Below, piece after piece: positions 1 to 30,530 of a stretch of DNA of 32,000 bases. Origin of the DNA: Halomicronema hongdechloris C2206. GTDB taxonomy: Bacteria; Cyanobacteriota; Cyanobacteriia; Phormidesmidales; Phormidesmidaceae. Within the stretch, counting starts at the first letter, position 1. Each line of letters begins with the position of its first letter. The notes under the pieces were generated by a model, which was not told the DNA's origin, did not search any database, and saw only the letters and a program-made list of their open reading frames with translations. A program made the position numbers and the translations under genes. The stretch spans positions 4,560,001 to 4,592,000 of the forward strand of contig NZ_CP021983.2 in assembly GCF_002075285.3 (NCBI RefSeq), in the 5' to 3' direction.

Positions 1-155
1 CTCAATATCCGGTAGCCGTTTCTAGGCATTACTAGTCATGTCATCCTAGAATTTTGTGGCCACAACGCTACCCTGCCCATTCCCTAGTCCTCCCTAGCTC
101 CCCAGTCCCTTGCAATCGTCCTCACCCTTTCGCTGCAATCTACTCGGTAAGCGCC

Positions 156-2186
156 ATGGCTAACGTACCCGATCCTGCCGTCGAGCTGATTAAAACCTTT
201 GAGGGATTTAGCCGCAATGCTTATCCAGATCCCCGCACTGGCGGCAAACCCTACACCATTGGCTGGGGCAGCACCCGCAAGAAAGATGGCAGTCCCTTCG
301 AATTAGGCGACACCATTACCCCAGACCAAGCCGAAGAGCTGTTGCGGTGGCAGCTAGAAAATGAATTTTTACCTCCCCTAGAAAAGATTCCCACCTGGCC
401 TACCATGAACCAGAGGCAACGGGGGGCCATTCTCAGCTTTGCCTATAACCTAGGGGCCCATTTCTATGGGGGCAATAACTTTGCCACGATCACAGAGGTT
501 CTGAAAACCGGCAACTGGAGCAAGATTGAATCAGCCCTGGTGCTTTACCGCAATCCAGGCACTAACGTCGAGGCCGGACTGCTACGGCGACGACTCACCG
601 AGGCCCAAGTCTTTCTAGAAGGAACCTCAGGCTTAAGTCTGAGCGCAGCCGGGAAGCGTTATCTGGCTGGGGGCCAGACCCCCCAAGAGTACTTCGAGGG
701 ACCTGCTAAAGACTATGAACCGGGGGAACGCACCCTGCTGCAATCCATGCCCTACCTGCGGGGCAAAGACGTCGTCGCCTTACAGGAGGCCTTGGTCAAA
801 GCTGGTCACTCCATTAGTACAGACGGCATTTTCGGCCCAGCTACCAAACAGGCCGTAGAAGCCTTTCAAGCCGCCAACGGCCTGACGGTAGATGGCATCG
901 TCGGGGACAACACTTGGTCTGCCTTGATGGACCCCGCGGCCAACTTTACCCTGCGAATTGGCCAAGATACTCTACTGAAACTGCGCCCCGAAGACGTGAC
1001 CGAACTCTCCGAGGCCGAGGTTCACGCCGTCAGCAAAGGCAGCACCTATCCCCTGCACTCCTATGCCTATGCCGACCCTACTCAGGGCGATTTTAATGGC
1101 CATATCAAGGTCGCCTTTCAAGGCACAAACGTTAAGGGATTCAACACTTGGTTTGTCTACGGCGGTCACATTCAAGTCGAGAAAGACGGGGAAGTCGTCT
1201 ATCCTTGGGAAGAACAACAAGCCGAGTTCATTCTCAAGATCTATCGCGATACCCTATTCAAACGTCGTCCGATTCAATCGAGCCAGCTGCCAGCCACCCA
1301 GAAACACTCAGTGGCGCAAGGCAGCCAATTTGTGCTGCATTCCTATGCCTTTCAAGACGCCCATGGCGATTTCAGCAGCCACATCAAGATCGCCCTGAAA
1401 TACGAGAAAGATTTTATCAACGATCTGAGCCAGTGGTTTGTCTATGACCAGCACGCCATGGTGGAATTTGATGGACAAATTGTCTACCCGCATCTACCAC
1501 GGTTGCAAGTCACCCAAGACACCATTCTGAAACGCCGACCCCTACAGTCGTCTCAGCTACCCGATAACGAGAAATACATGATTGCCAAAGGCACCAGCTT
1601 GATCCTGCACTCCTGGGCCTACCGAGATCAGCAGGGAGATTTTAACCGCCACATCAAGTTCGCCATTAAGTACGAGCAGGACTTTATCCAGAAGTTCAGT
1701 ACCTGGTACGTCTACGACCAACATGCCCAGGTCCTCCTAGGAGATAAGGTCGTCTATCCCCCCGCCTTTCAGGGCAAAGCTTTCAAACTGCCTGGCAATA
1801 CCAGTACCTTCTATACCGGCCAGCCTATCTTGCCCAAGGGAGACTTTACCTGGGGAGAGGCGACTAAGGAGGGAACCCGGATCCCCCCGACGGCTGACAT
1901 CGTTAAAAACATCTTGGCGCTAGCCAAGCACCTGCAGCAAGCACGCGATCGCATCGGCAGTCCTTTCATCATCAACTCCTGGTATCGCACCCCAGAGGCC
2001 AACAGGGCCGCCGGCGGCCATCCCCGCAGCCTACACTTACAGGGGCAGGCCGTAGACATGGATGTACCGGGCTACAGCCCACGACAGGTAGCCAATGCCC
2101 TAATCAATACCTGGCCAGGGGGCATCTTAATCTACAGCACCCATGTTCACTTAGATACGGGCCGACGACAGGTGGTTTATATGTAA
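156..2186 (+). CDS. Multidomain peptidoglycan hydrolase: phage-type (GH24-like) lysozyme, PG_binding_1 domain, three tandem ~90-aa repeats, and a C-terminal peptidase M15-like zinc peptidase domain
   Basis: Track ORF 54..2186. ELIKTFEGF..YPD..YTIGWGS is a lysozyme signature. LRGKDVVALQEAL..DGIFGPATKQAVEAFQ..GLTVDGIVG matches the PG-binding repeat. SLHLQGQAVDMD...THVHLD matches the His/Asp/His zinc triad of M15 peptidases. I moved the start to ATG 156 (MANVPDP) because the track start at 54 is TTG and the first 34 residues carry no domain signal. Confidence 0.85.
   Translation: MANVPDPAVELIKTFEGFSRNAYPDPRTGGKPYTIGWGSTRKKDGSPFELGDTITPDQAEELLRWQLENEFLPPLEKIPTWPTMNQRQRGAILSFAYNLGAHFYGGNNFATITEVLKTGNWSKIESALVLYRNPGTNVEAGLLRRRLTEAQVFLEGTSGLSLSAAGKRYLAGGQTPQEYFEGPAKDYEPGERTLLQSMPYLRGKDVVALQEALVKAGHSISTDGIFGPATKQAVEAFQAANGLTVDGIVGDNTWSALMDPAANFTLRIGQDTLLKLRPEDVTELSEAEVHAVSKGSTYPLHSYAYADPTQGDFNGHIKVAFQGTNVKGFNTWFVYGGHIQVEKDGEVVYPWEEQQAEFILKIYRDTLFKRRPIQSSQLPATQKHSVAQGSQFVLHSYAFQDAHGDFSSHIKIALKYEKDFINDLSQWFVYDQHAMVEFDGQIVYPHLPRLQVTQDTILKRRPLQSSQLPDNEKYMIAKGTSLILHSWAYRDQQGDFNRHIKFAIKYEQDFIQKFSTWYVYDQHAQVLLGDKVVYPPAFQGKAFKLPGNTSTFYTGQPILPKGDFTWGEATKEGTRIPPTADIVKNILALAKHLQQARDRIGSPFIINSWYRTPEANRAAGGHPRSLHLQGQAVDMDVPGYSPRQVANALINTWPGGILIYSTHVHLDTGRRQVVYM
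951..1760 (+). repeat. Three in-frame tandem copies (about 92, 89 and 89 codons) of an uncharacterised module inside the hydrolase gene
   Basis: The units start near 951, 1227 and 1494. Shared columns are DT(L/I)(L/F)K(L/R)RP...KGS...LHS(Y/W)A(Y/F)...GDF..HIK.A......W(F/Y)VY..H..V.....VVYP. Confidence 0.8.
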
Positions 2187-3169: not shown

Positions 3170-3385
3170 ATGCCGCCTGAGTCTGACCGGGTTCCTCCCA
3201 GCCTCAGGCGCGAGGTGGCTGAGAGAGTTCAGCAGCTTTGTGAATACTGCCGTTGCCCCGGTAGGGGGGTCCTATGCTGCTTTCTCGATTCCACTGCGGT
3301 GACGGGCAAGATTGATGTGTGGGGCTGGCAAGCGACCGCCAGTGATGCCCCTGCCGCTATCCTGGAGGCCGCCTATGACAGCTAA
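3170..3385 (+). pseudogene. N-terminal remnant of an HNH endonuclease
   Basis: PPSLRREVAERVQQLCEYCRCP resembles the start of cyanobacterial HNH proteins (..R..V..RA...CEYC). The DH..P / N..L.C..CN core is missing and the rest of the ORF has no HNH character. Confidence 0.4.
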
Positions 3386-3489
3386 ATCTGGTTGCTAAAA
3401 TGCAGTAGCGATATCACTGGCATCCGAGATTCACCGTAGTCAGATAGCACACCGATGATGCCAACAGCCTGAGCGTCACAGGTTCATCA

Positions 3490-3705
3490 ATGCCAACCGT
3501 CCTAAAAATTGGCCCCTATCGCTTTTACTTCTTTTCTAGAGAAGAAAGCCGAGTCCACATCCATATTTCCTGTCCAGATGGCGAGGCCAAGTTTTGGCTA
3601 GAACCCGAAATCGAATTGGCCACCAATTACAAACTCTCAAGAGTGCAACTCAAGCAAATTGAAACGCTAGTTGAGGAACATTATGACGAGTTTAGAACGG
3701 CATGA
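3490..3705 (+). CDS. DUF4160 family protein
   Basis: 71 aa. MPTVLKIGPYRFYFFSREESRVHIHI...AKFWLEP is the typical DUF4160 N-terminus. Confidence 0.8.
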   Translation: MPTVLKIGPYRFYFFSREESRVHIHISCPDGEAKFWLEPEIELATNYKLSRVQLKQIETLVEEHYDEFRTA

Positions 3706-3967
3706 AACCGTTACTTCCAAAACCGAAGTTAGCAACATTTGCGTCAATGGGATCTGGCTGCTCTGCCATGACCATGAGTATTTTCTGCCATACGAAACCT
3801 TTCCGTGGTTTGAGAATGCCCCCGTCAAACATATTTTTAACTTAGAAGAACCCCACCCTGGCCATCTCTATTGGCCAGACCTCGATGTTGATCTTTCTCT
3901 GGAGACCATCCAACACCCAGAGCGCTTTCCCCTGATCGCCAATGCCCCCCTTTCCGAAGACACATAG
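3683..3967 (+). CDS. DUF2442 family protein
   Basis: Track ORF 3671..3967, and I prefer the in-frame ATG at 3683. It has the typical DUF2442 C-terminal pattern (..F.LPYE.FPWF..A....I.N.E......L.WPDLDVDLSLE.I). It overlaps the DUF4160 gene by about 23 nt, so the two form a coupled pair. Confidence 0.8.
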   Translation: MTSLERHETVTSKTEVSNICVNGIWLLCHDHEYFLPYETFPWFENAPVKHIFNLEEPHPGHLYWPDLDVDLSLETIQHPERFPLIANAPLSEDT

Positions 3968-4315
3968 CCAGAAACCAGCTCTGATCTCCACCACCTGATT
4001 TACCACTAAGTCAGGTAGGGTAAGCATTGTCTGAATCTGCCCTGGGTACTCTGGAAAAGGCCACTGGGCTAGTATCCTGTCCCCATCTATGGGCATTTTC
4101 GAGTTTCCACAAATGGGTTGAAGCCGGAAGTTACTCGGTAGATTGGGCTTGCTGTTGCGATGGGAAACAGCCCAAAATTCCAAATTTTACAGATTTGGTC
4201 GGAGCGGTTGGTGAATAAGCTATTGCTGCTGAAGAGATTGGTGGGCATTGGGTCTGGAATAGGGGGTGATGCCTGTCATTGAGTCACAATGCCCACACTA
4301 CACTTCTAAAATGCC

Positions 4316-4341
4316 GAAAAATTTGAACCGCCTGCGGCGGT
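4316..4341 (-). terminator. Rho-independent terminator of the caspase gene
   Basis: On the minus strand ACCGCC-gca-GGCGGT is followed by TCAAATTTTTCGGCATTTT. It lies about 55 nt downstream of the stop at 4396. Confidence 0.5.
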
Positions 4342-4395
4342 GGGGAAAGAGAAAAGACTGAAGTGGATAGTGCAAAAGTACTATAGAGAAAAGGG

Positions 4396-6369
4396 TTACG
4401 GTAGAGTCCTTGGGGGAGAACAGACAACGCGGAACCCGATGCTGCCGTACTGATTGTCCGGGTAGTACCTGAGGCGGCTAGCAGACCGGCAGTACCGAGG
4501 AAAGGCGCCCCAAGAACCACCCCGCAGCACCCGGCGGTCTTGATCGCCTCCCTTTAGCCAGGCAGAGCCATCCGTAGGGGCTCCTTCATAGCTACTGTGC
4601 CAGACATCCTGGCACCACTCCCAGACATTGCCATGCATGTCGTAGAGGCCGAAGGCGTTGGGGGGAAAGCGGCCGACCTCGGTGGTCTTTTGGCGATAGG
4701 TGCCTTTGGGGCCGGAGCCATAGGTATAGTTGCCGTTATAATTCGCCAGGTCCGGCGTGATCGTCTCACCAAAATGAAATGGGGTGGTGGTGCCAGCCCG
4801 GCAGGCATATTCCCACTCGGCTTCACTGGGCAGGCGGTAGGTGCGGCCCGTCTGCTCCGACAGCTTCTGACAGAAGGCCACGGCGTCTTCCCAGGACACC
4901 TTCTCCACCGGGCGATTCTCACCCTTGAACTTGCTGGGATTTTTGCCCGTGACGGCTTGATATTGCGCCTGCGTCACCGGAAACTTGCCCATCCAAAACT
5001 CAGGCACTTGCACTCGATGTTGAGGTCCTTCGTCGTCACTTCGACCTTCCTCATCTGCGGGCGCTCCCATCAAAAATTCGCCAGCGGGAATGGACACCAG
5101 TTCCAGGGTGATGCCGCTGCCCAGATCTTCGCTGCGATATTCAGCCTTTCCCTGGCGGCGCTCGGTGATGTTGCCCTGGGCATCCACCGTCACCGTCTCA
5201 AACTCGAAGGTGGGGGCTTCATTTTTTGAGGGGGCCGGAGGAGCAGGTGATGTCGCTGGTTGCAATGGCTGAGGTCCTCGTAAGAGAGCTTCAACCACAG
5301 GAAACTCTTTGTCTACCTGCTTAATCACCGGCTGCAAGTCCTCATCCCGCAGGTTTAGCGATGTCTGAAGCCGTTTCAGCACCCTGATGGCTGGCTCATC
5401 CAGGGGAAACGTCATCTCAATTTCTTCCCGCAGAGCAGCTTCGTATTCGGCTAAGTTCGCTGCCTTTTCTTGGAAGGGTCTTAGCACTGAGGCTTCGATG
5501 GTTGCAGCCGCGTCAGCGCTGAGGTTTAGGACTTGCCGTTTTTGTTTTAGGACTCGGCGGCCAGCCCCAAAAATCTTGCCCCCGCGAACGACCGACTGCA
5601 CCTCTTTGCGGTAAAGTTGCTCGGCGTCAATCACCGCCTTGGCCACGAGGATATCGCGGCCCTGCTTGGCGTTGAAAATCACCGGTTCCATGGCTGGGGC
5701 GGCGGCGCGGACGCTGGCGCGCACATAGTCATGCCAATCACCCACGGAAATAGCTGCTTTGGCTTCCGGGGCGGCCCCCCCGGTTTTGAGCCCTTCTACC
5801 AAATAGCGGGTGTAGACCGAGAGGGGTTCTCCTTCTTGTTCCAGGGCATAGCGGGTAGAGGTGGAGGCCGCCAACACACACCAGCCCTTGCCGCCCAACT
5901 GGGTTTCGACATCGATGCGGCTGTCATCCATGCCCAGAAAGCCCTCGGCGAAGGCGGCCCCAAAGCAACAGTCCAGAATCACGACTTTGCGCTGGGCTAC
6001 GGAGTTATTGATGACTCGTTTGATAAACTCGGCTTCCAGGGCGGTCCCGGCATTGATGCGGCCATTCTCGAAGAGCTGAGAGTCGGCCGTGGTGAGATAA
6101 AACTCTCCCGACATGTCTTTGATGCCATGGCCAGTGAAATAGAGCAACCCTAAATCCGGCTGGGAGAGCTGGTTGAAGACTTCGGCAATGCGACGACGGG
6201 CCGTGCCCACATCGGGGTTGCGCAGCGGTATCACCTGATCGAAACCGCCGATATGGTTATCCTCCAGGACCTGCCTCAGGGCCTCGACACCATTGATGGG
6301 GCAGTTGAGAGGGGGTAAACCTTTGCCGTATTTCCCTACCCCGATCAATAGTGCGATTTTGCGTCCCAT
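4396..6369 (-). CDS. Caspase-family (peptidase C14, orthocaspase) protein fused to a C-terminal FGE-sulfatase (SUMF1-like) domain
   Basis: 657 aa. The N-terminal caspase fold has YFTGHG (His81) and VILDCCFG (Cys134/135). A helical linker covers about residues 240-380. The C-terminal domain has WMGKFPVTQAQY...WEDAVAFCQKLS...YRLPSEAEWEYACRAG...GLYDMHGNVWEWCQD...RVLRGGSW, the FGE-sulfatase signature. Confidence 0.9.
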   Translation of the reverse strand: MGRKIALLIGVGKYGKGLPPLNCPINGVEALRQVLEDNHIGGFDQVIPLRNPDVGTARRRIAEVFNQLSQPDLGLLYFTGHGIKDMSGEFYLTTADSQLFENGRINAGTALEAEFIKRVINNSVAQRKVVILDCCFGAAFAEGFLGMDDSRIDVETQLGGKGWCVLAASTSTRYALEQEGEPLSVYTRYLVEGLKTGGAAPEAKAAISVGDWHDYVRASVRAAAPAMEPVIFNAKQGRDILVAKAVIDAEQLYRKEVQSVVRGGKIFGAGRRVLKQKRQVLNLSADAAATIEASVLRPFQEKAANLAEYEAALREEIEMTFPLDEPAIRVLKRLQTSLNLRDEDLQPVIKQVDKEFPVVEALLRGPQPLQPATSPAPPAPSKNEAPTFEFETVTVDAQGNITERRQGKAEYRSEDLGSGITLELVSIPAGEFLMGAPADEEGRSDDEGPQHRVQVPEFWMGKFPVTQAQYQAVTGKNPSKFKGENRPVEKVSWEDAVAFCQKLSEQTGRTYRLPSEAEWEYACRAGTTTPFHFGETITPDLANYNGNYTYGSGPKGTYRQKTTEVGRFPPNAFGLYDMHGNVWEWCQDVWHSSYEGAPTDGSAWLKGGDQDRRVLRGGSWGAFPRYCRSASRLRYYPDNQYGSIGFRVVCSPPRTLP

Positions 6370-6379
6370 GCCTGCTGCG

Positions 6380-6581
6380 CTAGTCTTTGGTGAGTTCTTT
6401 GGCCGCTGCCACTAGTGTATCCAGAGTATTGTCGAGATCTTCCGGACAGAGGCTTTTAACCTGGCTTGATGACCTCAATGGCCGTCTCTAGCAGATCAAC
6501 CTTGAAGCCCCAGGCAATAATGCCTATGACTGGGCTGCAATGCCCACCTACACGACTTCTAGCCGCAAGGGCAGGACTCAT
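6380..6581 (-). pseudogene. Decayed EACC1-like gene: a middle segment plus the C-terminal ~27 codons, in two different frames
   Basis: Minus-strand translation gives ...QVKSLCPEDLDNTLDTLVAAAKELTKD* (stop at 6380-6382). This parallels ISVKNLRPADLDATLDKLVAAAQDLANDSP at the end of the 9424..9819 product. A shifted frame gives SRVGGHCSPVIGIIAWGFKVDLLETAIEVIKPG, which parallels NRVADPQVPAGGMGVAAWLWSILTAEITIEGIKALG. About 24 codons between the two segments are missing, as is the N-terminal part. Over 65 nt, 6386..6450 versus 9445..9509, I count 50 identical positions. Confidence 0.55.
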
Positions 6582-6641
6582 GCACTGTCGCCCGCCTGAA
6601 ATGATAGCTATCATCCTAGGAGACGGGTTACGAAATCAACT

Positions 6642-6857
6642 ATGGTAGATGACTCAAAGGTTCAGTACATTTCTGACGAACAGGGTGAGGTGACCGGGGT
6701 TATCTTACCGATTCAGCTTTGGCAAAGCATTCTTGGCGAGCTTGAAACCCAACATCTGTTAAAGAGTGACACGATGCGGCAGCGCCTACTAGACGCTAAA
6801 CAGCGATCAGAGGGAATAGCCTTTGAAACCGCGTTGACTCAGCTAGGTCTGGAATGA
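6642..6857 (+). CDS. Type II antitoxin, short Phd/YefM-like partner of YoeB
   Basis: 71 aa. The C-terminal half, ELETQHLLKSDTMRQRLLDAKQRSEG, parallels E. coli YefM [27 protein letters not shown]. Its stop overlaps the toxin start (ATGA at 6854-6857). Confidence 0.7.
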   Translation: MVDDSKVQYISDEQGEVTGVILPIQLWQSILGELETQHLLKSDTMRQRLLDAKQRSEGIAFETALTQLGLE

Positions 6858-7156
6858 AGCCTATTGAGTTTGACCCGAATGCCTTCGAAGACCTAGCTTG
6901 GTGGATTCAGCAAGATCGTAAAATCGCTCTTCGTATTATTAAATTGATTAGAGAGATTCAGCGCACGCCATTTATAGGCACTGGAAAACCAGAACCTCTG
7001 AAACATGAGTTAAAAGGATGCTGGTCTCGACGTATTACCCAAGAACATCGCCTTGTCTATGAAGTAGGCAAAGAGCATACAGCATTTCCTTACTGGGTGA
7101 GGTACAGCCTATCTCCTGATATCAAGGGTTTCATAGTCATCCGTGTACCTCACTAG
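6854..7156 (+). CDS. yoeB: Txe/YoeB family toxin with an atypical C-terminus
   Basis: DLAWWIQQDRKIALRIIKLIREIQRTPFIGTGKPEPLKHELKGCWSRRITQEHRLVYEV is collinear with E. coli YoeB up to ..EHRLVY.V. After about nt 7066 the sequence diverges, runs about 16 residues long, and has no ..CRYHY end. Confidence 0.75.
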   Translation: MKPIEFDPNAFEDLAWWIQQDRKIALRIIKLIREIQRTPFIGTGKPEPLKHELKGCWSRRITQEHRLVYEVGKEHTAFPYWVRYSLSPDIKGFIVIRVPH

Positions 7157-7302
7157 CTTCAAAAACGCTGTATTCGCATCTTGGAATGCCTACCCTACGT
7201 TGTCTTCAAAGCGCAGTAATTAGAGCGACAATATTAGTAAGATCGCTGGCACTATATTTTCACGGTTAACTGCCCTGAGTCAGCCTTACCGCCTGCTAAG
7301 TT

Positions 7303-8454
7303 ATGAAGATCAGCCTGCAACCGACACTTTTGCGCTGGGCGCGAGAACGCGCCGGCATGAGTGTAGACGTGTTGGCTAAGAAAATGAGCGTCAAGCCAGA
7401 GCGGATCACAGGCTGGGAAGCAAGCGGAGAGCTGACCTTCAAGCAAGCCCAGAAGCTAGCAGATATAACCCATACACCTTTTGGTTATCTTTATCTTCCA
7501 GAGCCGCCTCGAGAGACCCTCTCCATTCCCGACTTCCGCACCCTCCGAAATGAGGAAATGCGGCGGCCCAGTCCCGATCTGCTCGAGATTCTGAATCAGG
7601 CTCAACAAATTCAGAGTTGGTTTCGCGATGAATTGCTCGCCCGAGGTGAAACCCCCTTGTCCTTTGTGGGTAGTTTGCCTGTGGACATATCGATTAAAGC
7701 AGCGGCTGATCGCATCCGCGAGGTGATCAACTTTGAAGCCAGTCGAGATGCTCGTCCCTGGGAGGATGCACTCAAGCTGCAAACCGAGCAAATTGAGTCC
7801 ACAGGCGTGTTGGTTATGCGGAACAGCGTTGTCGGCGCCAATAATTGCCGCAAGCTTTCTGTAGATGAATTTCGGGGCTTTGCGCTGTCTGATGACTATG
7901 CGCCTCTGATCTTCATCAATTCTAGCGACTCTAAAGGAGCCCAGATATTTACCCTGGCCCATAAACTAGTGCATATTTGGGTGGGCGTATCTGGCATTTC
8001 TAACTTCGATAAAACCTATGCCGACCATGACGACCTTGAACGATTCTGTAACCAGGTTGCTGCTGAGTTACTTGTCCCAGCCGCTGAATTAAGAGATGCC
8101 TGGGCTGAGGCAGCGTCTCAAGAAGATTGGTTGCAACCTTTGACTCAGCGTTTCAAGGTCAGCACCCTGGTGGTTTTGCGCCGATTAAACGACCAAGAAT
8201 TGATTTCTAACAGTACCTTCCAGCAGCGTTATCAAGCTGAGCAGGAACGCTTTCAGGTCTCTGCTAATGAGCAAACAGGCGGAGGAGACTTTTATCGCAC
8301 GCAAATCTCTCGGTTTAGTAATCAATTTCTCATGGCCTTGGTGGAGAGCACCTTAGAGGGGCGTACCCCTTATCGAGATGCACTTAGGCTACTCAAGCTA
8401 TCTAAGGTCGAAACCTTTAAGCAGCTTGCAAGGGAACTTTCGGTCTCTGTCTAA
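7303..8454 (+). CDS. XRE-type HTH domain fused to an ImmA/IrrE (DUF955) metallopeptidase-like domain, with the HExxH motif changed to HKxxH
   Basis: 383 aa. The N-terminal HTH reads LLRWARERAGMSVDVLAKKMSV...TFKQAQKLADI. The peptidase core reads FRGFALSD..APLIFINS......QIFTLAHKLVHIWVG. The Lys codon AAA at 7963-7965 sits where the catalytic Glu is expected. Confidence 0.8.
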   Translation: MKISLQPTLLRWARERAGMSVDVLAKKMSVKPERITGWEASGELTFKQAQKLADITHTPFGYLYLPEPPRETLSIPDFRTLRNEEMRRPSPDLLEILNQAQQIQSWFRDELLARGETPLSFVGSLPVDISIKAAADRIREVINFEASRDARPWEDALKLQTEQIESTGVLVMRNSVVGANNCRKLSVDEFRGFALSDDYAPLIFINSSDSKGAQIFTLAHKLVHIWVGVSGISNFDKTYADHDDLERFCNQVAAELLVPAAELRDAWAEAASQEDWLQPLTQRFKVSTLVVLRRLNDQELISNSTFQQRYQAEQERFQVSANEQTGGGDFYRTQISRFSNQFLMALVESTLEGRTPYRDALRLLKLSKVETFKQLARELSVSV

Positions 8455-8461
8455 TACTCCA

Positions 8462-8743
8462 ATGGCCTATCTCCTCGACACCAATATATTTATTCAAGCC
8501 AAGAATGATTATTACGGCTTTGACCTGTGTCCGGGATTTTGGGCTTGGTTAGAGCAGCAGAATGAAGCAAATACGGTGTTTACCCATGAAGTCTTCAATC
8601 CTAGGCAACCGGGACGTCGAAAGATCAAAATTCCAGCGGTCTGCCATACTTTTGAAGTTCCCTATATCCGAATTTTTGAGATGTTACGTAAAGAGGGAGC
8701 CTTGTTTGTCTTAGAGGCTGCTTTAAAGCCTGAGAGACAGTAA
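8462..8743 (+). pseudogene. DUF4411 (PIN-like) gene with a large in-frame internal deletion
   Basis: MAYLLDTNIFIQAKNDYYGFDLCPGFWAWLEQQNEANTVF is the DUF4411 N-terminus. It joins directly (near nt 8581) to the C-terminal THEV....KIKIPAVCHTFEVPYIRIFEMLRKEGALFVL. The product is 93 aa, whereas I recall about 150-170 aa for the family. I chose the in-frame ATG at 8462 inside track ORF 8378..8743. Confidence 0.6.
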
Positions 8744-8845
8744 AAAAGCTCACACGGTATAGGCTGCTCAAGAGATTGTTCGGCATTAGATCTGGGATAA
8801 GTCGTGATGCATATGACTGAGACGCGTAGCTCAGCCTACGCCACT

Positions 8846-9427
8846 CTAAGCGGCCCAGAGCAGCGATAGGGATACCATAAATTCGGGCAGAACGGCTTCC
8901 CCAGATAATTGCTCAGGATTGTCTAATACTTCGATGGTGCCGCCCTCACGAAAAATGCCAACCCGGCGCTGTTGAGGATCGATGAGCCAACCCAGGCGAG
9001 TGCCGTTGGCCTGATATTCCTGTAGCTTGGCATAGCCATCTTGCCAGCGATCGCTGGGCGACAGCAGCTCCACCGCAAAGTCAGGGCACAGGGGCAAGAA
9101 CCGCTGGCGCTGATCTGGGGTGAGCTCGTCCCAGCGGTGGTGAGGAATCCAGGCGGCATCGGGTGAGCGGATAGCGCCATTGGGCAGCACAAACCCGGTG
9201 GAGGAGTCAAAGGTGACGCCCAGCTGCGTTCGGCGATTCCACAGGTTCAGTTCTGCGTTCAAATCGGAGCTGCGCTTGCCGGTTTCTCCCCCCGTCGGTG
9301 GCATGATGATCAACTCTCCAGTGGCCGTCCGCTCCAGCTGCACATCAGGATTGTGGGCACAGAGCCGCAGGAACTGATCATCGGTCAGTTGCACCACCGA
9401 ATTGAGATTCAAGGTCAGCGTGCTCAT
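8846..9427 (-). CDS. Uma2 family (DUF820) PD-(D/E)xK restriction-endonuclease-like protein
   Basis: 193 aa. Family-typical features are E...GELIIMPPTGGETG, ....P.GAIRSPDAAWI and PDFAVELLSPSD (the nuclease core), followed by K...Y...G...GWLIDP..R.V. Confidence 0.85.
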   Translation of the reverse strand: MSTLTLNLNSVVQLTDDQFLRLCAHNPDVQLERTATGELIIMPPTGGETGKRSSDLNAELNLWNRRTQLGVTFDSSTGFVLPNGAIRSPDAAWIPHHRWDELTPDQRQRFLPLCPDFAVELLSPSDRWQDGYAKLQEYQANGTRLGWLIDPQQRRVGIFREGGTIEVLDNPEQLSGEAVLPEFMVSLSLLWAA

Positions 9428-9819
9428 GGGGAATCGTTGGCCAAATCTTGGGCCGCTGCCACTAGTTTATCCAGGGTGGCATCGAGATCCGCTGGGCGCA
9501 GGTTTTTAACGCTAATGGATTTGCCTCCGGCCTCTAGGGTGAACTCGATGGGCTTTCCCGGCAGGCGGGCCTGGACATCCTGGCCCAGGGCCTTAATCCC
9601 CTCGATGGTGATCTCGGCGGTGAGAATGCTCCACAGCCAAGCAGCAACTCCCATGCCGCCAGCGGGTACTTGGGGGTCGGCCACCCGGTTGATCTGGTCC
9701 ACCTCGTCTAGCTGGCTGAGATCTTGAAAGAGGCTGGTGGTGATGGTTTCTTGGTGGTCTAGGGGCACATCAGCCATGCCTTGACGCCAGTCGATGGTTA
9801 ACCTCACCCGCTTAGCCAT
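9424..9819 (-). CDS. EACC1-like small protein (effector-associated constant component type)
   Basis: 131 aa. The pattern is an acidic N-terminal part, then P..GGMGV..W.. (small hydrophobic segment), then ...IEFTLEAGGKSISVKNLRPADLDATLDKLV. This fits my recollection of the EACC1 family and is not verified by any search. GGAG lies 9 nt upstream of the ATG. The stop overlaps the Uma2 start (ATGA, 9424-9427). Confidence 0.55.
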   Translation of the reverse strand: MAKRVRLTIDWRQGMADVPLDHQETITTSLFQDLSQLDEVDQINRVADPQVPAGGMGVAAWLWSILTAEITIEGIKALGQDVQARLPGKPIEFTLEAGGKSISVKNLRPADLDATLDKLVAAAQDLANDSP

Positions 9820-9824
9820 GGGTT

Positions 9825-10123
9825 TTAGCTCCGTGCTTGATAGTCAGGGGACTGTGCCAGGCTCAAGCTAGCATTTTGCTTAGTGTAGAGCCACCTAGCT
9901 GTCAATAACTCCACTAAGTCAGCTTTCTTTACTTTGGAATAGCCAGCCAGCTGATGCTGCTTTGCCATTTGCCGTAACTGCTGCGTGCTAAATGATTCCA
10001 GGAGTTTAGCCCGGATATCTCACGAGAGAAGAGGAATCGGGGGTCATGCAATCTAAGTTGCTGTCTTAGCGTAACCTCATCCAGCTCAATCGCCATTGAC
10101 GCGCCAACCGACGGTCTCTCCAC
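9825..10123 (-). pseudogene. Possible frameshifted small ORF with a Rho_N/SAP-like C-terminal motif, ending 5 nt upstream of the EACC1-like gene
   Basis: Track ORF 9929..10123 (MAIELDEVTLRQQLRLHDPRFLFSREIS..) continues sensibly only after a frame change near 10020. The shifted frame reads ..RAKLLESFSTQQLRQMAKQHQLAGYSKVKKADLVELLTAR.., with its stop at 9825-9827. The pattern L..LA...gi.GYSK..KA.L...L is Rho_N-like. Confidence 0.25.
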
Positions 10124-10206
10124 TTTTCAAGCCGGTTCCAGCATTCAAAGTCGTATCAAGGCACTTTTTTAGAGTTATCCGCAGCCGGCAGAGGTTTTGT
10201 CAGTGC

Positions 10207-11109
10207 TTACCGCAGGGCAAACTTGCGCACGGCGAGCAGACTGCCCATCAGTCCCACGATGCTGCCTAGAGAAAACAGGGACACTGGCAATAGCAGGGAT
10301 TGCTGGACGGTGAGTTGCAGGCCATTGACCAGGAATTGCACGAAATCTGGCTGCTGGGCCACTAGTTCCTCAATAAATCGATGGATCCCCAACAAACAGC
10401 CCCAGGAAATGCCGGCGCCGACGATACCAAAGCAGGCCCCTTGCAGGATGAATGGCAAGTAAATCCAAGCGGCGGTGGCGCCGACCAGCTGCATCACTTC
10501 GATCTCACGGCGGCGGGCCAACACGATCAGGCGAATTGTGGTGGTGATGACGGCCATGGCGGTGAGGCTAAGCAGGGTAATCACGCCAATGCTGACCCAG
10601 CGCAATCCTTGATTTAGTTGGGCCAGGCGCTGGACGGCTTCGTCGATGTAGCTAACCTCATCCACCCCTTGCAGAGTCGTCAGTTGGTCGGCCAGGGCGG
10701 GGACATCCTCGGAAGAGCGGGCCTTGACCTTGAGCTCATCCACTAAGGGATTGCCATTGAGTTGTTCGGTGGCCCCTTCGATGTCGGCAAGGCCCAGGTC
10801 GTCTACTAGGGCTTCCCAGGCCTCCTCTTTGCTGACAGTGGTCACTTGCATCACCTCGGGCATGGCCTCTACCGTGGGACGCAGGGTATCCGCCGGGATG
10901 CCGCTCTCTAAATAGGCAGAGACTTCTAATTGGCTGCCGAATTGGTTGAGCAGGCTTTCCAGCTGCCAGGTGGATTGCAGGCTGATGCCGAAGAGGAACA
11001 GCAGCACCGTAATCGTACTGACGGCGGCCCAATTCATCCAACCACCCCGGCGCAGGCCTAGGAGGGTTTCCCGTAGCAAATAGTCAAGCTTGGTGAAGAA
11101 TTTGAGCAT
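10207..11109 (-). CDS. ftsX: Cell-division ABC-type permease-like protein FtsX
   Basis: 300 aa. It has the N-terminus RETLLGLRRGGWMNWAAVSTI, a periplasmic loop, then three C-terminal TM helices with REIEVMQLVGATAAWI. This is the typical FtsX layout. Confidence 0.85.
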   Translation of the reverse strand: MLKFFTKLDYLLRETLLGLRRGGWMNWAAVSTITVLLFLFGISLQSTWQLESLLNQFGSQLEVSAYLESGIPADTLRPTVEAMPEVMQVTTVSKEEAWEALVDDLGLADIEGATEQLNGNPLVDELKVKARSSEDVPALADQLTTLQGVDEVSYIDEAVQRLAQLNQGLRWVSIGVITLLSLTAMAVITTTIRLIVLARRREIEVMQLVGATAAWIYLPFILQGACFGIVGAGISWGCLLGIHRFIEELVAQQPDFVQFLVNGLQLTVQQSLLLPVSLFSLGSIVGLMGSLLAVRKFALR

Positions 11110-12684: not shown

Positions 12685-13035
12685 TTAGGCTTGCTCGAGA
12701 GTGTCTTGGCGCAGCTGATCGAAGTCGACAGCGTCTTTGTCCAGGTTTTCCTGCCGCAGCTGGTCGAAGTCCACCTTGCCAGACTTGTTGAGGTTTTCCT
12801 GGCGGATCTCGTCGAAATCGACGGCGTCTTTGTCCAGGTTTTCGCGGCGTAGCTGGTCGAAGTCGACTTTGCCGGACTTATCCAGGTTTTCCTGGCGGAT
12901 CTCGTCGAAGTTGACGGCATCCTTCTCTAGATTTTCCCGCCGCAGCTGGTCGAAGTCGGGGGCGGCGTAGCTAGCTGGGGCCGCCACAATGCCAAGGGTG
13001 GTGACTGCCAGGAGAGATAAGGCAAAGCGTTTCAT
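12685..13035 (-). CDS. Secreted protein made almost entirely of alternating 15/16-residue charged repeats
   Basis: Track ORF 12685..13074. I prefer the start MKRFALSLLAVTTLGIVAAPASYA at 13035 (GGAG 8 nt upstream). A signal peptide is followed by six FD(Q/E)(L/I)R(R/Q)ENL(D/E/N)K.. units. Confidence 0.7.
   Translation of the reverse strand: MKRFALSLLAVTTLGIVAAPASYAAPDFDQLRRENLEKDAVNFDEIRQENLDKSGKVDFDQLRRENLDKDAVDFDEIRQENLNKSGKVDFDQLRQENLDKDAVDFDQLRQDTLEQA
12688..12957 (-). repeat. Coding tandem repeat with a ~93-nt super-unit made of 48-nt and 45-nt sub-units
   Basis: Two sub-unit flavours occur. FDEIRQENL(D/N)KSGKVD appears twice. FDQLR(R/Q)ENL(D/E)KDAV(D/N) appears three times. The array ends with a truncated FDQLRQDTLEQA. 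Confidence 0.85.
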
Positions 13036-13291
13036 GGTCATTGCTCCTTCAGGTGTGTTCAACGAATCAATCATCTTGAGTCCTATAGTGATGGGGGCAC
13101 CTGAAGGGTCTCTGACCGCTACCTAAGCGGTCGATAAGGGATTTCTGAGAAAGCTGAAAACCAGCCGGGAAAGGGCTGAATCACAGTGCCCAGGGAACTG
13201 AGAAGCATCACCGGCCCGAGGCTCAGGCATCTGAAGCGCATCAACAAGCATGATAGATAAAGGAATCTACCTCCTCCTCAGCGCCGATCGT

Positions 13292-13663
13292 CTAGGGCAT
13301 AGACATCGGGTCGGCAGAAATCCAAGTGCGGCGGTTGATGCACTGACTAAACTGGTCCATCGTTGCTGCCATCAACTGAGAGGCCACCCCCTGATTCCAA
13401 TAGTCGGGATGCACGGTCAGCGGACCAAAGTTGCCCAGGCTGCCCCAGCGGGTCAGAAAGTTGCCGCCGATGAGCCGTCCTTGATGCTTTGCCGCAATGG
13501 CAACGCCAGGCTCAAGGTGCCAGCGGTGCATATAGCCGGCATCCCCAAACATATGTCGGGGCTCTGCCAGGCCGGCAGCAGTGCCGAAGGCCAGCCGAAA
13601 GATGTGGTCGGCCTGGGGTAACTCTTCCCGCTGTAAAGGACAAATAGTAATCGCTAGGCTCAT
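13292..13663 (-). CDS. GNAT-family N-acetyltransferase, probably a truncated N-terminal fragment
   Basis: The GNAT-like portion reads IFRLAFGT....P..F.GDA.Y...W......AIAAKHQGRLIGGNFLTRWGSLGNFGPLTVHPDYWNQGVASQLM. The product ends at 123 aa with a non-family tail, whereas homologues I recall are much longer. Confidence 0.5.
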   Translation of the reverse strand: MSLAITICPLQREELPQADHIFRLAFGTAAGLAEPRHMFGDAGYMHRWHLEPGVAIAAKHQGRLIGGNFLTRWGSLGNFGPLTVHPDYWNQGVASQLMAATMDQFSQCINRRTWISADPMSMP

Positions 13664-13856
13664 GGTTTGGCATGATGGGGTTGATGGCGCTGCCTAGACA
13701 ACGCCTGAGAGAACATTTGGAAACTCGGCTGAAAGGCCTGTAAGGTAGGCGTTTTAGAGCGTATGGCTCCGTTGGCCAGAAGCCAGTCTGGAGCAAGGTT
13801 GCAGGGTCTTTCCAAATATCCTCTGATTCAGAGTTAACAATACCTAGTTGCTGTCC

Positions 13857-14663
13857 ATGCAGATTCAGACAATTCAGGGCCAACCCGCCAGTATCCTAGG
13901 CTTGGCAGGCCAAGAGCCAATGGAGTCAGGCTGTGTCGATCTGGCCTGGCAGGCTGGGGTCAACTACTTCTTTTCCTATGACCTGGGTGATAGCCCCCTG
14001 CTCAGGGACTTGCACCAGCTACTGAAGCAGCATCGTGAGCAGGCTATCGTGGCCACGGGCAGTGAACGCCGGGAACTGAAGTCTTGGCAAACGTATATCG
14101 AACAGGTACGGCAGACCCTAGCCATCGATACCGTCGACATTCTCTTCGCCGAGTATGTGTCCCCCGCCGATGACTGGCAGCAGGTCATGACGCTGCTGGA
14201 GCAGCTGTACGAGTGGAAAGCCGCCGGTCTGATCCGCTATGTCGGCGTCACTACCCACACCCGTGCCATCGCCCAGCGGTTGCTCCAGGAATCTCGCTGT
14301 GATGTGCTGATGCATCGCTACAACATGGCCCACCGCAAGGCCGAAGCAGCGGTCCTGCCAGCGGCGCTGGCAGCCGATATTCCCGTCGTCGCTTTTACCA
14401 GTACCCGCTGGGGCACCCTGCTGCAGGGCCATCCCGCCTGGCCTACCGATCCTCCGACGGCGGCTGACTGCTATCGTTTCGGGCTGCATCAGCCCGCCAT
14501 TCGGCTGGTGCTGACGGCACCCAAGACCCGCGACGACCTGGAGGCGAATCTGGCTGTCCTAGAGGCGCCTTCCTTGTCGGCTGAAGAGGTGGCTCACTGG
14601 CAACGGTACGGCGATCTAGTCTATGGCCAGGGGCAAGATGCCTTTGAGACCAATTGGCCCTGA
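13857..14663 (+). CDS. Aldo/keto reductase family oxidoreductase
   Basis: Track ORF 13848 (TTG)..14663, and I prefer the in-frame ATG at 13857. The AKR-like pattern is VDILFAEYV...L..L...GLIRYVGVTTH....A..L......DVLMHRYN. Confidence 0.75.
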   Translation: MQIQTIQGQPASILGLAGQEPMESGCVDLAWQAGVNYFFSYDLGDSPLLRDLHQLLKQHREQAIVATGSERRELKSWQTYIEQVRQTLAIDTVDILFAEYVSPADDWQQVMTLLEQLYEWKAAGLIRYVGVTTHTRAIAQRLLQESRCDVLMHRYNMAHRKAEAAVLPAALAADIPVVAFTSTRWGTLLQGHPAWPTDPPTAADCYRFGLHQPAIRLVLTAPKTRDDLEANLAVLEAPSLSAEEVAHWQRYGDLVYGQGQDAFETNWP

Positions 14664-29146: not shown

Positions 29147-29228
29147 GCGGATGTGGCGGAATTGGTAGACGCGCTAGATTTAGGTTCTAGTGCCTTCGGG
29201 CGTGAAGGTTCAAGTCCTTTCATCCGCA
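29147..29228 (+). tRNA. tRNA-Leu (anticodon UAG), class II with a long variable arm; no CCA encoded
   Basis: The acceptor stem GCGGATG pairs with CATCCGC. The D-arm reads GCGG-AATTGGTAGA-CGC. The anticodon stem CTAGA/TCTAG encloses the loop TTTAGGT. The variable arm reads TGCCTTCGGGCG. The T-arm reads GAAGGTTCAAGTCCTTC. Confidence 0.9.
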
Positions 29229-29381
29229 TCATCACAGTTGTTATCCAGTCTCTTGCCGGCTGTGGCAAGGGAGATGGGCGCTCGCCAGATCATCTCTAAG
29301 CTATCTCTGCAGACGAGAGAGCATCGGCGATGGACCACGCCTCGATACTATAGAGACAACACTCTCTCATTGAGGCGATTT

Positions 29382-30530
29382 GTGCTGCTCTCCAAAGGCT
29401 TTGAAGTCGAACTCTACACAGGTACCCCGGCAGGCAACATTGTGGGCTTGTCAGATCGGATCGTGGCCGATCTGAATGGATTTGTCCGTGAACCCGATAG
29501 TCGCAATGTTGAATACACTACTCCCCCCCTGCGTCGTTATGAGCAGCTCTTATGCGAATTAGTCAGACCCCGTCAGCAGCTGCGCGCCTACCTAAAGCAG
29601 TTGGGGAACTACACGCTGATTCCTGGCAGCAGCTTGGCCCTAGGAGATACCCACCGATTCTATCGGTCTGACCCTGATAATCCTTACCACACCTATATTG
29701 AGCACACCTATGGCACCAAGGTTGTCACCGCCAGTGTGCATATCAACATTGGCATTGCGAATCCCGAGTTGCTAATGCAAGCTTGCCGTTTAGTGCGAGT
29801 GGAAGCGCCCCTCTACTTAGCCTTGACGGCCTCATCTCCTTTCTTAGGGGGGCAGATCACAGGGGCTCATTCTAGCCGTTGGCGCGTCTTCCCGAAAACA
29901 CCGCCCCAAGTGCCTCTGTTTGAAAGCCATCAGCACCATATTCAGTGGACAGAACACCAGCTAGAGCAGGGGTCTATGCAAAATGTGCGCCACCTATGGC
30001 TATCGGTGCGCCCCAACGGCGATCGCCGTCCCTATTGCCTGAATCGTCTCGAGTTGCGGATCTGTGACTTAGTCAGTGATCCGGTTCAGCTGTTGGCGGT
30101 GACGGCGTTACTGGAAGCTCGGCTGTTGCAATTGTTCCAGGATCCCAGTCTCGATCCGCTGGAGTCGAGCCAATTAGCGGCCCACACTCGGGCTGACGAG
30201 CTCTTGCAGCTGACAGATGCCAATGAGATCGCCGTGGCCGATCAGAGTCTGGAGGCCCAACTGCGGCACTGGCGTGATGGTAGCCCCATCTTGGCCGCCG
30301 ATTGGCTGCAGCAACTCTATGATCAGGTCTGGCCCACGGCTAAGGCCTACGGCATCAGCTGCTTTCTGGTGCCCCTGAAAAAAATTCTGCGCCAGGGCAA
30401 CGAGGCCCAGCTGTGGTTACGCCAAGCCCAGACTGCTAGTGTCTCTCAGGTGGTGGTACAGGCCATTGACACCATGCGGCGTCAGGAAGAGGGCCTGAGC
30501 GACGATATCTGTGAACCGAAGGTTGCCTAA
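29382..30530 (+). CDS. gshA: Glutamate--cysteine ligase (cyanobacterial GshA type)
   Basis: Track ORF 29190..30530 starts inside the tRNA. The conserved protein begins at (V)LLSKGFEVELYTGT. I prefer GTG 29382, with GAGG 5 nt upstream. REPDSRNVEYTT, YHTYIEHTYGTKVVTASVHINIGI and LELRICDL are family-typical. Confidence 0.8.
   Translation: MLLSKGFEVELYTGTPAGNIVGLSDRIVADLNGFVREPDSRNVEYTTPPLRRYEQLLCELVRPRQQLRAYLKQLGNYTLIPGSSLALGDTHRFYRSDPDNPYHTYIEHTYGTKVVTASVHINIGIANPELLMQACRLVRVEAPLYLALTASSPFLGGQITGAHSSRWRVFPKTPPQVPLFESHQHHIQWTEHQLEQGSMQNVRHLWLSVRPNGDRRPYCLNRLELRICDLVSDPVQLLAVTALLEARLLQLFQDPSLDPLESSQLAAHTRADELLQLTDANEIAVADQSLEAQLRHWRDGSPILAADWLQQLYDQVWPTAKAYGISCFLVPLKKILRQGNEAQLWLRQAQTASVSQVVVQAIDTMRRQEEGLSDDICEPKVA

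Follow-up and report, generated by a model that had tools for sequence, protein, structure and literature searches.

Divergent EACC1 gene in Halomicronema hongdechloris, probably split from its caspase–FGE-sulfatase partner by rearrangement and followed by a Uma2 gene, a probable passenger

The best described relatives of the locus treated here are EACC1–caspase pairs. A comparative study of 2020 defined EACC1 as a constant, membrane-associated component that is encoded beside a caspase with variable C-terminal domains and that has α+β elements on either side of a conserved hydrophobic stretch with a Gly patch; the pair corresponds to 'System 4' of Kaur, Burroughs, Iyer and Aravind (eLife 2020; PMC7159879). 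The characterised example is KrEACC1–KrAvs12 from Ktedonobacter racemifer (Evans et al., bioRxiv 10.1101/2025.11.14.688446): The N-terminal part of KrEACC1 pairs with two C-terminal strands, the caspase cuts the protein at Asp49, immediately ahead of the hydrophobic segment, toxicity resides in the C-terminal fragment alone, and cleaved EACC1 permeabilises liposomes. In the same work, EACC1-linked proteases are associated with diversity-generating retroelements. In departure from the earlier view of a constant component, these experiments identify EACC1 as the effector, the caspase as its activator, and the C-terminal domains of the caspase proteins as sensors. Because EACC1 is itself the effector, no effector slot is left to fill. 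Here, we analyse a small gene in a 32,000-nucleotide stretch of the genome of Halomicronema hongdechloris C2206 (the window), for which a preliminary description had proposed an EACC1-like protein coupled to a Uma2-family nuclease in a two-gene conflict module. According to the reading we favour, the small gene instead belongs to a divergent EACC1–caspase module that was probably split by rearrangement, with the Uma2 gene as a passenger and not as the effector. The features on which this reading turns are the following:

9424..9819, minus strand: intact EACC1-family gene (131 aa, XM38_043440), assigned from its open reading frame, homologues and profile–profile comparison; product predicted to be a protease-activated pore-forming pro-toxin
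9640..9687, minus strand: predicted exposed linker, codons 45-60 (R-V-A-D-P-Q-V-P-A-G-G-M-G-V-A-A), from the AlphaFold2 model; expected caspase cleavage site
9607..9651, minus strand: Gly-rich hydrophobic segment, codons 57-71 (GVAAWLWSILTAEIT), the 'transmembrane helix' of the original EACC1 description and strand 3 of the AlphaFold2 model
9424..9427, minus strand: ATGA in which the EACC1-gene stop overlaps the Uma2 start, read from the sequence; same overlap in contig L032
8846..9427, minus strand: Uma2-family PD-(D/E)xK nuclease gene (193 aa, XM38_043430), from its match to PF05685; member of the interposed block
6380..6460, minus strand: remnant of a second EACC1 gene, comprising the last 26 codons (VKSLCPEDLDNTLDTLVAAAKELTKD) and the stop, from a direct repeat, the open reading frame and a profile match
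4396..6369, minus strand: gene for a 657-aa caspase (Peptidase_C14)–linker–FGE-sulfatase (C-type-lectin-like) protein, from Pfam; family-wide EACC1 partner

Judged by its homologues, the small open reading frame is a real, conserved gene. It starts with ATG, ends with TGA and is preceded by a GGAG 9 nt 5' of the ATG, which lies within the end of a short upstream open reading frame. Its product is 100% identical to XM38_043440 of H. hongdechloris C2206 and contains the motifs P..GGMGVAAW, IEFTLEAGGKSISVKNLRPADLDATLDKLV and PDFAVELLSPSD; the reading frame, the GGAG, the ATGA overlap and these motifs are all as the preliminary description gave them. It was equally right about the adjoining gene: The 193-aa product matches the Pfam family Uma2 (PF05685) nearly end to end, at profile positions 2-169 of 172 (E 3.3e-45, 154.1 bits, cutoff 27), and is an intact, full-length member above the gathering score, which also matches the PADLOC defence candidate PDC-S03 (E 1.5e-11). 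For the small protein, we found 52 homologues at E<=0.01, which share 45-76% identity with it if the window's own copy and one fragment are excepted; all are cyanobacterial or unnamed metagenome sequences, and the named ones are mostly from Leptolyngbya-like organisms. The subfamily alignment has ten invariant columns, and the intact protein keeps every subfamily-invariant residue. Relative to its closest relative (P0002, 76% identity, encoded at 362-757 of the 918-nt Logan metagenomic contig L032 from SRR34348087), the ratio of nonsynonymous to synonymous substitution rates (dN/dS, ω) is 0.19. Directly upstream of the small gene lies a frame at 9825-9998 on the minus strand, whose stop is located 5 nt before the ATG and which encodes a Rho_N/SAP-like motif (QQLRQMAKQHQLAGYSKVKKADLVELL). 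This frame lacks a start codon ahead of the motif, has in-frame stops farther upstream, is not present in the upstream flank of L032 and is probably a gene fragment.

The assignment of the small protein to EACC1 follows from a chain of intermediates that reaches proteins positive for the Pfam EACC1 family PF19953. A direct PF19953 test is weak in this case, because KrEACC1 itself, whose sequence we took from the supplement of bioRxiv 10.1101/2025.11.14.688446, barely passes it (28.2 bits over residues 52-106, gathering cutoff 23.6); the supplement of PMC7159879 contained no EACC1 sequences. A precomputed Pfam domain is absent from all 52 close homologues, too. With the subfamily alignment as query, an exhaustive profile search retrieved 165 relatives among 1.8 billion representatives, and PF19953 is matched at E<=0.01 by 24 of the 81 relatives scanned; some relatives sit at the gathering score, for example P0133 with 23.5 bits. 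A second search with a broader alignment returned 11 proteins with precomputed PF19953 annotation among its top 120. Together with two proteins just under the Pfam cutoff, these 11 formed an EACC1 comparison set of 13 cyanobacterial proteins (A4), to which hhalign aligned the subfamily (A1) with a probability of 99.6% and an E-value of 4.9e-24 over 113 columns. The size of the subfamily's proteins, the gene order and the central hydrophobic, Gly-rich segment all match the EACC1 family definition. On this sequence evidence, we place the 131-aa protein in EACC1 as a divergent cyanobacterial representative: The identity that had been proposed holds through the profile–profile link, but not as a direct Pfam or NCBIfam match, of which there is none at E<=1, an outcome that the preliminary description had listed as refuting.

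The predicted structure of the 131-aa protein agrees with the published EACC1 descriptions. The AlphaFold2 model is confident (mean predicted local distance difference test score, pLDDT, 91.5; predicted template modelling score 0.83) and has the topology β1-α1-β2, exposed loop, β3 (WLWSILTAEIT), α2-β4-β5-α3. Its sole low-confidence stretch, with a pLDDT of about 68, is the linker at about residues 45-60, with the exposed loop at 48-60, between strand 2 and strand 3, in which R45, P52 and G57 are invariant within the subfamily and D48, G54 and M56 nearly so. The hydrophobic segment that follows (GGMGVAAWLWSILTAEI) forms strand 3 of the modelled, uncleaved monomer; it shows the small-residue and Gly patch of EACC1, and its G57, W61, L62, L66 and T67 are invariant. 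By analogy, the bond that is cleaved would lie within linker codons 45-60. A Foldseek search against the PDB yielded weak, generic ferredoxin-like matches only, none at E<=1e-3, which is uninformative on EACC1 membership because the PDB holds no EACC1 structure.

The neighbourhood of the small gene in other genomes identifies its partner. We collected 31 loci from different genomes and clustered all flanking open reading frames: The single recurrent neighbour is a caspase–FGE-sulfatase protein of 640-850 aa, with Pfam calls of Peptidase_C14 and FGE-sulfatase, sometimes with GUN4 between them. Its gene is adjacent to the small gene in 29/31 loci, directly downstream in 26 and directly upstream in three (L010, L011 and L013, which thus have the order caspase, then EACC1); of the remaining two, L005 is cut by a contig end and L025 is orphaned. 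In the wider family, a called caspase gene directly follows the EACC1 gene in three of five sampled members. A Uma2 gene lies immediately downstream in none of the 31 other genome loci and in none of the five wider-family loci. The survey for a recurrent downstream Uma2 gene that the preliminary description had called for therefore came out negative, and its placement of Uma2 in an effector slot of EACC1 is not supported, given the adjacency of the caspase gene and the role of EACC1 as the effector itself.

Several relatives depart from the simple pair. No gene is called in the 1.2-2.4 kb that come after EACC1 in L046 (3394-5800) and L047 (3394-4620), two loci from Dolichospermum and a JGI contig. 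The gap of L047 measures 1.2 kb and is succeeded by an FGE-sulfatase open reading frame or fragment that stands alone; both gaps look like decayed caspase partners. L023 contains a second, diverged EACC1-like copy (10666-10953), 4.3 kb downstream of the first and past the caspase gene, and Adonisia has two EACC1 loci (L007, L028). The EACC1 module thus occurs in multiple copies and in different orders among the relatives.

The window itself contains a gene for such a partner. In the 657-aa product of 4396..6369, the Peptidase_C14 domain (PF00656) spans residues 3-222 (E 1.7e-15) and the FGE-sulfatase domain residues 423-649 (E 1.3e-59). The open reading frame is full length, and besides the domain match it has the His/Cys dyad of the family: His81 (FTGHG) and Cys135 (ILDCCF) are intact, are conserved in 22/23 orthologues and align with the catalytic residues of KrAvs12 (GHG, C152), the caspase that cleaves EACC1. 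We predict that this protein is the activating protease of EACC1 with a sensor domain of its own. Its gene starts 3,055 nt downstream of the small-gene stop, on the same strand and with five genes between; EACC1 immediately 5' of a caspase gene is the arrangement of the family and not of the intact copy in the window. The earlier statement that no STAND or other NTPase is present in the window is correct, but it overlooked this gene, the usual partner; the idea of a minimal two-gene EACC1–Uma2 module is not supported.

What does lie immediately 5' of the caspase gene is the remnant of a second EACC1 gene, the stop of which is located 10 nt before the caspase ATG. It became apparent as a 77-nt direct repeat on the minus strand, in which 6384-6460 is 75% identical to 9434-9510, the 3' end of the intact EACC1 gene, and which contains a 16-nt identical core (GGCCGCTGCCACTAGT). 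When the family profile was run against the six-frame translation of the window (hmmsearch), the remnant matched profile positions 102-127 with E 2.7e-6. Its position indicates that the caspase gene once had an EACC1 gene of its own, of which only this tail is left. Over its 26 residues, the remnant shares 65% identity with the intact copy, as against 81-83% with other family members; because it is nearer to the latter, the intact copy is a paralogue or a mosaic and not the displaced original. We also considered site-specific integration via the 77-nt repeat and found no support for it: The 16-nt core encodes a conserved LVAAA motif, a run this long is nothing unusual at 75% identity, and the interposed block carries neither an integrase nor a transposase. 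A further idea, that the caspase–FGE-sulfatase protein of this locus is the variable protein of a diversity-generating retroelement, was dropped as no template/variable repeat pair was found in the 32-kb window; among the window's open reading frames scanned against Pfam, there was no reverse transcriptase.

From these observations and by analogy with KrEACC1, the following mechanism can be proposed. The 131-aa protein would be an auto-inhibited pro-toxin. A trigger would be sensed by the FGE-sulfatase (C-type-lectin-like) domain, the presumed sensor, upon which the caspase–FGE-sulfatase protein would cut the pro-toxin in the loop of residues 45-60. The freed fragment, comprising WLWSILTAEI and the rest of the C-terminus, could then oligomerise into a membrane pore and kill the cell, by the logic of abortive infection or suicide. 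In all likelihood, the intact EACC1 remains functional and acts in trans with the caspase encoded 3 kb downstream or with a caspase from elsewhere in the genome. The Uma2 gene would have been carried in by insertion or rearrangement. As its start overlaps the EACC1 stop, it probably borrows the transcription and translation of EACC1; the 4-nt overlap by itself suggests that the two genes may be translationally coupled.

About 3 kb separate the intact EACC1 gene from the caspase gene. Besides Uma2, this interval contains a DUF4411/HTH-M78 pair and an antitoxin–YoeB pair:

6642..6857, plus strand: RelB/YefM-like antitoxin gene, from weak Pfam matches to RelB-like (E 3.7e-4) and PhdYeFM (E 7.5e-3) families; its stop overlaps the YoeB start
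6854..7156, plus strand: YoeB-like toxin gene with an aberrant C-terminus (Pfam PF06769, E 9.5e-30)
7303..8454, plus strand: gene for a helix-turn-helix (HTH) protein with an M78 (ImmA/IrrE-like) peptidase domain (Pfam Peptidase_M78, E 5e-18; HTH_3, E 3.8e-7; PADLOC models RmrA and capP)
8378..8743, plus strand: DUF4411 (PIN-like) gene, shortened (Pfam PF14367, E 2.6e-23 and 7.5e-24)

The match to the YoeB profile ends at position 71 of 80, and 24 unmatched residues come after it, so the product does not qualify as a complete toxin and is, by its sequence, probably inactivated. The DUF4411 gene would encode about 93 aa if it starts at 8462, and the 159-position profile is matched in two separate stretches; the HTH–M78 gene is the usual partner of DUF4411, and 7303-8743 looks like a decayed two-gene module. 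The block wedged between EACC1 and the caspase gene is selfish-looking in its gene content. Just past the 3' end of the caspase gene, a DUF2442 gene (3671-3967, plus strand) adds to the island-like character of the region from 3.6 to 9.9 kb; DUF2442 is often part of small toxin–antitoxin-like pairs. Two histories fit this arrangement. Either an insertion or recombination carried the EACC1–Uma2 segment into a resident EACC1 gene, or a replacement took place within a tandem pair of modules; as to the latter, the second copy of L023 lies beyond the caspase gene, and caspase-to-EACC1 orders occur in relatives.

A number of observations weigh against the favoured reading. They concern, on the one hand, the link to EACC1. 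The 131-aa protein has zero matches among Pfam, NCBIfam and PADLOC families at E<=1, PF19953 included. Against the Ktedonobacter EACC1 family, a shallow alignment of 8 sequences, hhalign gave a colinear alignment over 88 columns with an E-value of 0.0039 and a probability of only 8.6%; the comparison of the narrow subfamily with that family was not significant, and neither was the profile comparison with the single KrEACC1 sequence. The invariant or nearly invariant Met of the subfamily (GGMG) corresponds to a conserved Lys in the wider cyanobacterial family (P-x-G-x-K), and the Ktedonobacter cleavage Asp aligns one residue after this position. That the caspase would act on an EACC1 copy from which it is separated is itself a supposition of the reading, and a consensus promoter/terminator scan of 6200-10300 found zero promoter-like sites, including upstream of either gene, an uninformative result; the same scan found two weak terminator-like sites only, fewer than in shuffles.

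On the other hand, these observations concern contig L032. Its EACC1 gene ends in the same ATGA overlap, beyond which a Uma2 N-terminus agrees with that of the window at 51/55 residues. The upstream flank of L032 is unrelated to the window, and homology begins within about 10 nt of the EACC1 ATG; the pair has been stable and may have travelled together. Between the window and L032, purifying selection acts on both genes, as the following values illustrate:

Small gene, whole: synonymous substitution rate (dS) 0.86, ω 0.19
Small gene, codons 1-70: dS 0.34, ω 0.27
Small gene, codons 71-104: proportion of synonymous differences (pS) 0.975, saturated, ω not computable
Small gene, codons 105-131: dS 0.78, ω 0.21
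Uma2, first 55 codons: dS 0.30, ω 0.08

The divergence is uneven: Between window positions 9424-9819 and L032, nucleotide identity is 87% for codons 1-70, only 55% for codons 71-104 and 77% for codons 105-131, and reaches 92% in the Uma2 sequence that follows; within codons 71-104, 14 codons specify the same amino acid in both sequences, and 13 of these have different third positions. This unevenness marks the small gene as a mosaic and suggests gene conversion between EACC1 paralogues. Owing to the L032 junction, the adjacency of EACC1 and Uma2 must be older than this strain. The preliminary description had named confinement to this genome as what would refute its module, and the adjacency is nearly so confined, but one short contig from a close relative shares the junction; by the sequences surveyed, it is confined to one narrow lineage.

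Three competing explanations, and one broader version of the first, have to be set against a split EACC1–caspase module. The first takes EACC1 and Uma2 for a selected, translationally coupled two-gene conflict module in which the Uma2 nuclease is effector or co-effector beside an EACC1 pore. It can point to the overlap that persists in L032 despite a different upstream flank, to the ω values of 0.19 and 0.08, to the match with PDC-S03 and to Uma2 genes within 3 kb of EACC1 in six other loci (L001, L006, L007, L024, L041 and L047). The placement of these six genes tells against it, as position and orientation vary: In L001, L006 and L007, Uma2 is divergent and lies about 120 nt upstream; in L024 and L041, it is also upstream but shares the strand of EACC1 (with a distance of 100 nt in L041, Symplocastrum torsivum, 3226-6011); in L047, it is found 1.6 kb upstream on the opposite strand, and still the caspase gene is adjacent in 5/6, L047 having an FGE-sulfatase remnant only. 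Over all EACC1 loci, Uma2 genes occur at a density of about 1 per 45 kb, which is probably about the background for Uma2-rich filamentous cyanobacteria. In JGI metagenomes, a search with the Uma2 N-terminal coding sequence, made degenerate at third positions, gave 0 matches, and a Uma2-centred locus search returned two distant relatives only, neither of them near an EACC1 gene. Considering also the survey counts (Uma2 downstream in 0/31 genomes, caspase–FGE-sulfatase adjacent in 29/31), the physical disruption evident in the window from the remnant and the decayed toxin–antitoxin genes, and the fact that known EACC1 activation requires a protease, which Uma2 is not, we regard such a module as very unlikely. 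The broader version, in which EACC1 followed by Uma2 is a selected unit of whichever kind, with Uma2 either a co-translated, DNA-targeting second arm or a mobile selfish element that inserts at the 3' ends of expressed genes, appears quite unlikely to us as well; in its mobile form, the 77-nt duplicate of the EACC1 3' end may be an insertion footprint.

The remaining two explanations leave Uma2 aside. The intact EACC1 might be functionally unlinked from the local caspase, either as a decaying orphan or in the service of another caspase, with the local caspase as a defective half. The remnant speaks for this, as it shows that the caspase's own EACC1 was destroyed and, by its 65% identity to the intact copy against 81-83% to others, that the intact copy is not the displaced original; so do the second copies in relatives (the tandem one in L023, the two loci of Adonisia) and the orphaned or decayed arrangements of L025, L046 and L047. 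A decaying EACC1 is hard to reconcile with an ω of 0.19 and the retention of all subfamily-invariant residues, and a defective caspase with a full-length open reading frame and an intact catalytic dyad; moreover, both genes lie on the same strand, 3 kb apart. We therefore hold a functional separation to be unlikely. Finally, the small open reading frame could encode an unrelated small α+β protein of ferredoxin-like fold that stands beside caspase genes by chance, as the missing direct Pfam match, the generic Foldseek matches and the weak comparison with the Ktedonobacter family would allow. Since the hhalign probability against EACC1-matching proteins is 99.6%, the chain of intermediates is continuous, and gene order, size and the Gly-rich hydrophobic segment fit the family definition, while Foldseek says nothing about a family that the PDB lacks, this explanation is barely credible.

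The split EACC1–caspase module, with Uma2 as its probable passenger, has several implications. A Pfam-invisible family of "hypothetical proteins" from Leptolyngbya-like cyanobacteria is re-assigned to the EACC1 protease-activated pore-forming toxins, and its pairing with caspase–FGE-sulfatase proteins widens the known sensor repertoire of the EACC1 system. The locus furthermore illustrates that selfish genes may insert into a defence or suicide module and split it, with purifying selection on the toxin half persisting, and this combination predicts that the toxin acts in trans. As a remaining lead, the EACC1–Uma2 stop–start overlap is conserved in two lineages; should the Uma2 gene be a mobile element after all, this would offer a first handle on the abundance of Uma2 genes in cyanobacteria.

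Elsewhere in the window, a large cell-wall hydrolase gene (54-2186, plus strand) combines a phage lysozyme, a peptidoglycan-binding domain and an M15 peptidase and contains three internal repeats at a spacing of about 280 nt. A 129-aa open reading frame at 12685-13074 (minus strand) has an N-terminus resembling a signal peptide and a 93-nt (31-aa) unit of the form DFDQLRRENLDKDAV that is repeated three times in tandem, with no Pfam match, and three overlapping, unannotated 123-aa open reading frames occupy both strands of 13250-13883. A tRNA at 29147-29228 (plus strand) overlaps the mechanically called start of the open reading frame 29190..30530. The rest of the window is housekeeping in character (ATP synthase beta and epsilon, DnaK, DnaJ, the Rieske protein PetC, ArsA and a P450).

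Compared with described EACC1–caspase systems, the subfamily shares the small 5' gene of about 115-135 aa with a Gly-rich hydrophobic segment and α+β flanks, the 3' gene with an N-terminal caspase, whose GHG and ILDCCF align with KrAvs12, and a variable C-terminal domain, the occurrence in filamentous or multicellular bacteria, and the exposed linker that immediately precedes the hydrophobic segment, the region in which KrEACC1 is cut (Asp49). In contrast to KrEACC1–KrAvs12, it is too divergent for PF19953 and is linked to EACC1 via intermediates and profile–profile comparison only; the C-terminal domain of its partner is FGE-sulfatase and not an Avs/STAND NTPase, and near the position of the Ktedonobacter Asp the wider cyanobacterial family has Lys and this subfamily Met. 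In H. hongdechloris, moreover, 3 kb separate the two genes, and a dead second copy of EACC1 lies in this interval. The 4396..6369 product has the same C14 and FGE-sulfatase architecture as cyanobacterial caspase/orthocaspase–FGE-sulfatase proteins, which are often variable proteins of diversity-generating retroelements. Bacterial gasdermin–protease modules and Pepco/Trypco follow the same logic, in which an auto-inhibited protein is encoded beside a protease and cleavage frees a membrane-permeabilising fragment, but they have no sequence or fold relationship with EACC1, which is much smaller and has its inhibitory part at the N-terminus. Uma2/DUF820 (PF05685) is a family without established function, of which the 193-aa product is a full-length member; what sets it apart is its location inside a rearranged toxin module with a start that overlaps the EACC1 stop, seen only here and in one close relative. 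The EACC1–caspase system as such is already known; new are a subfamily that escapes Pfam, its pairing with an FGE-sulfatase sensor, and the local split of the module by about 3 kb with a dead second copy.

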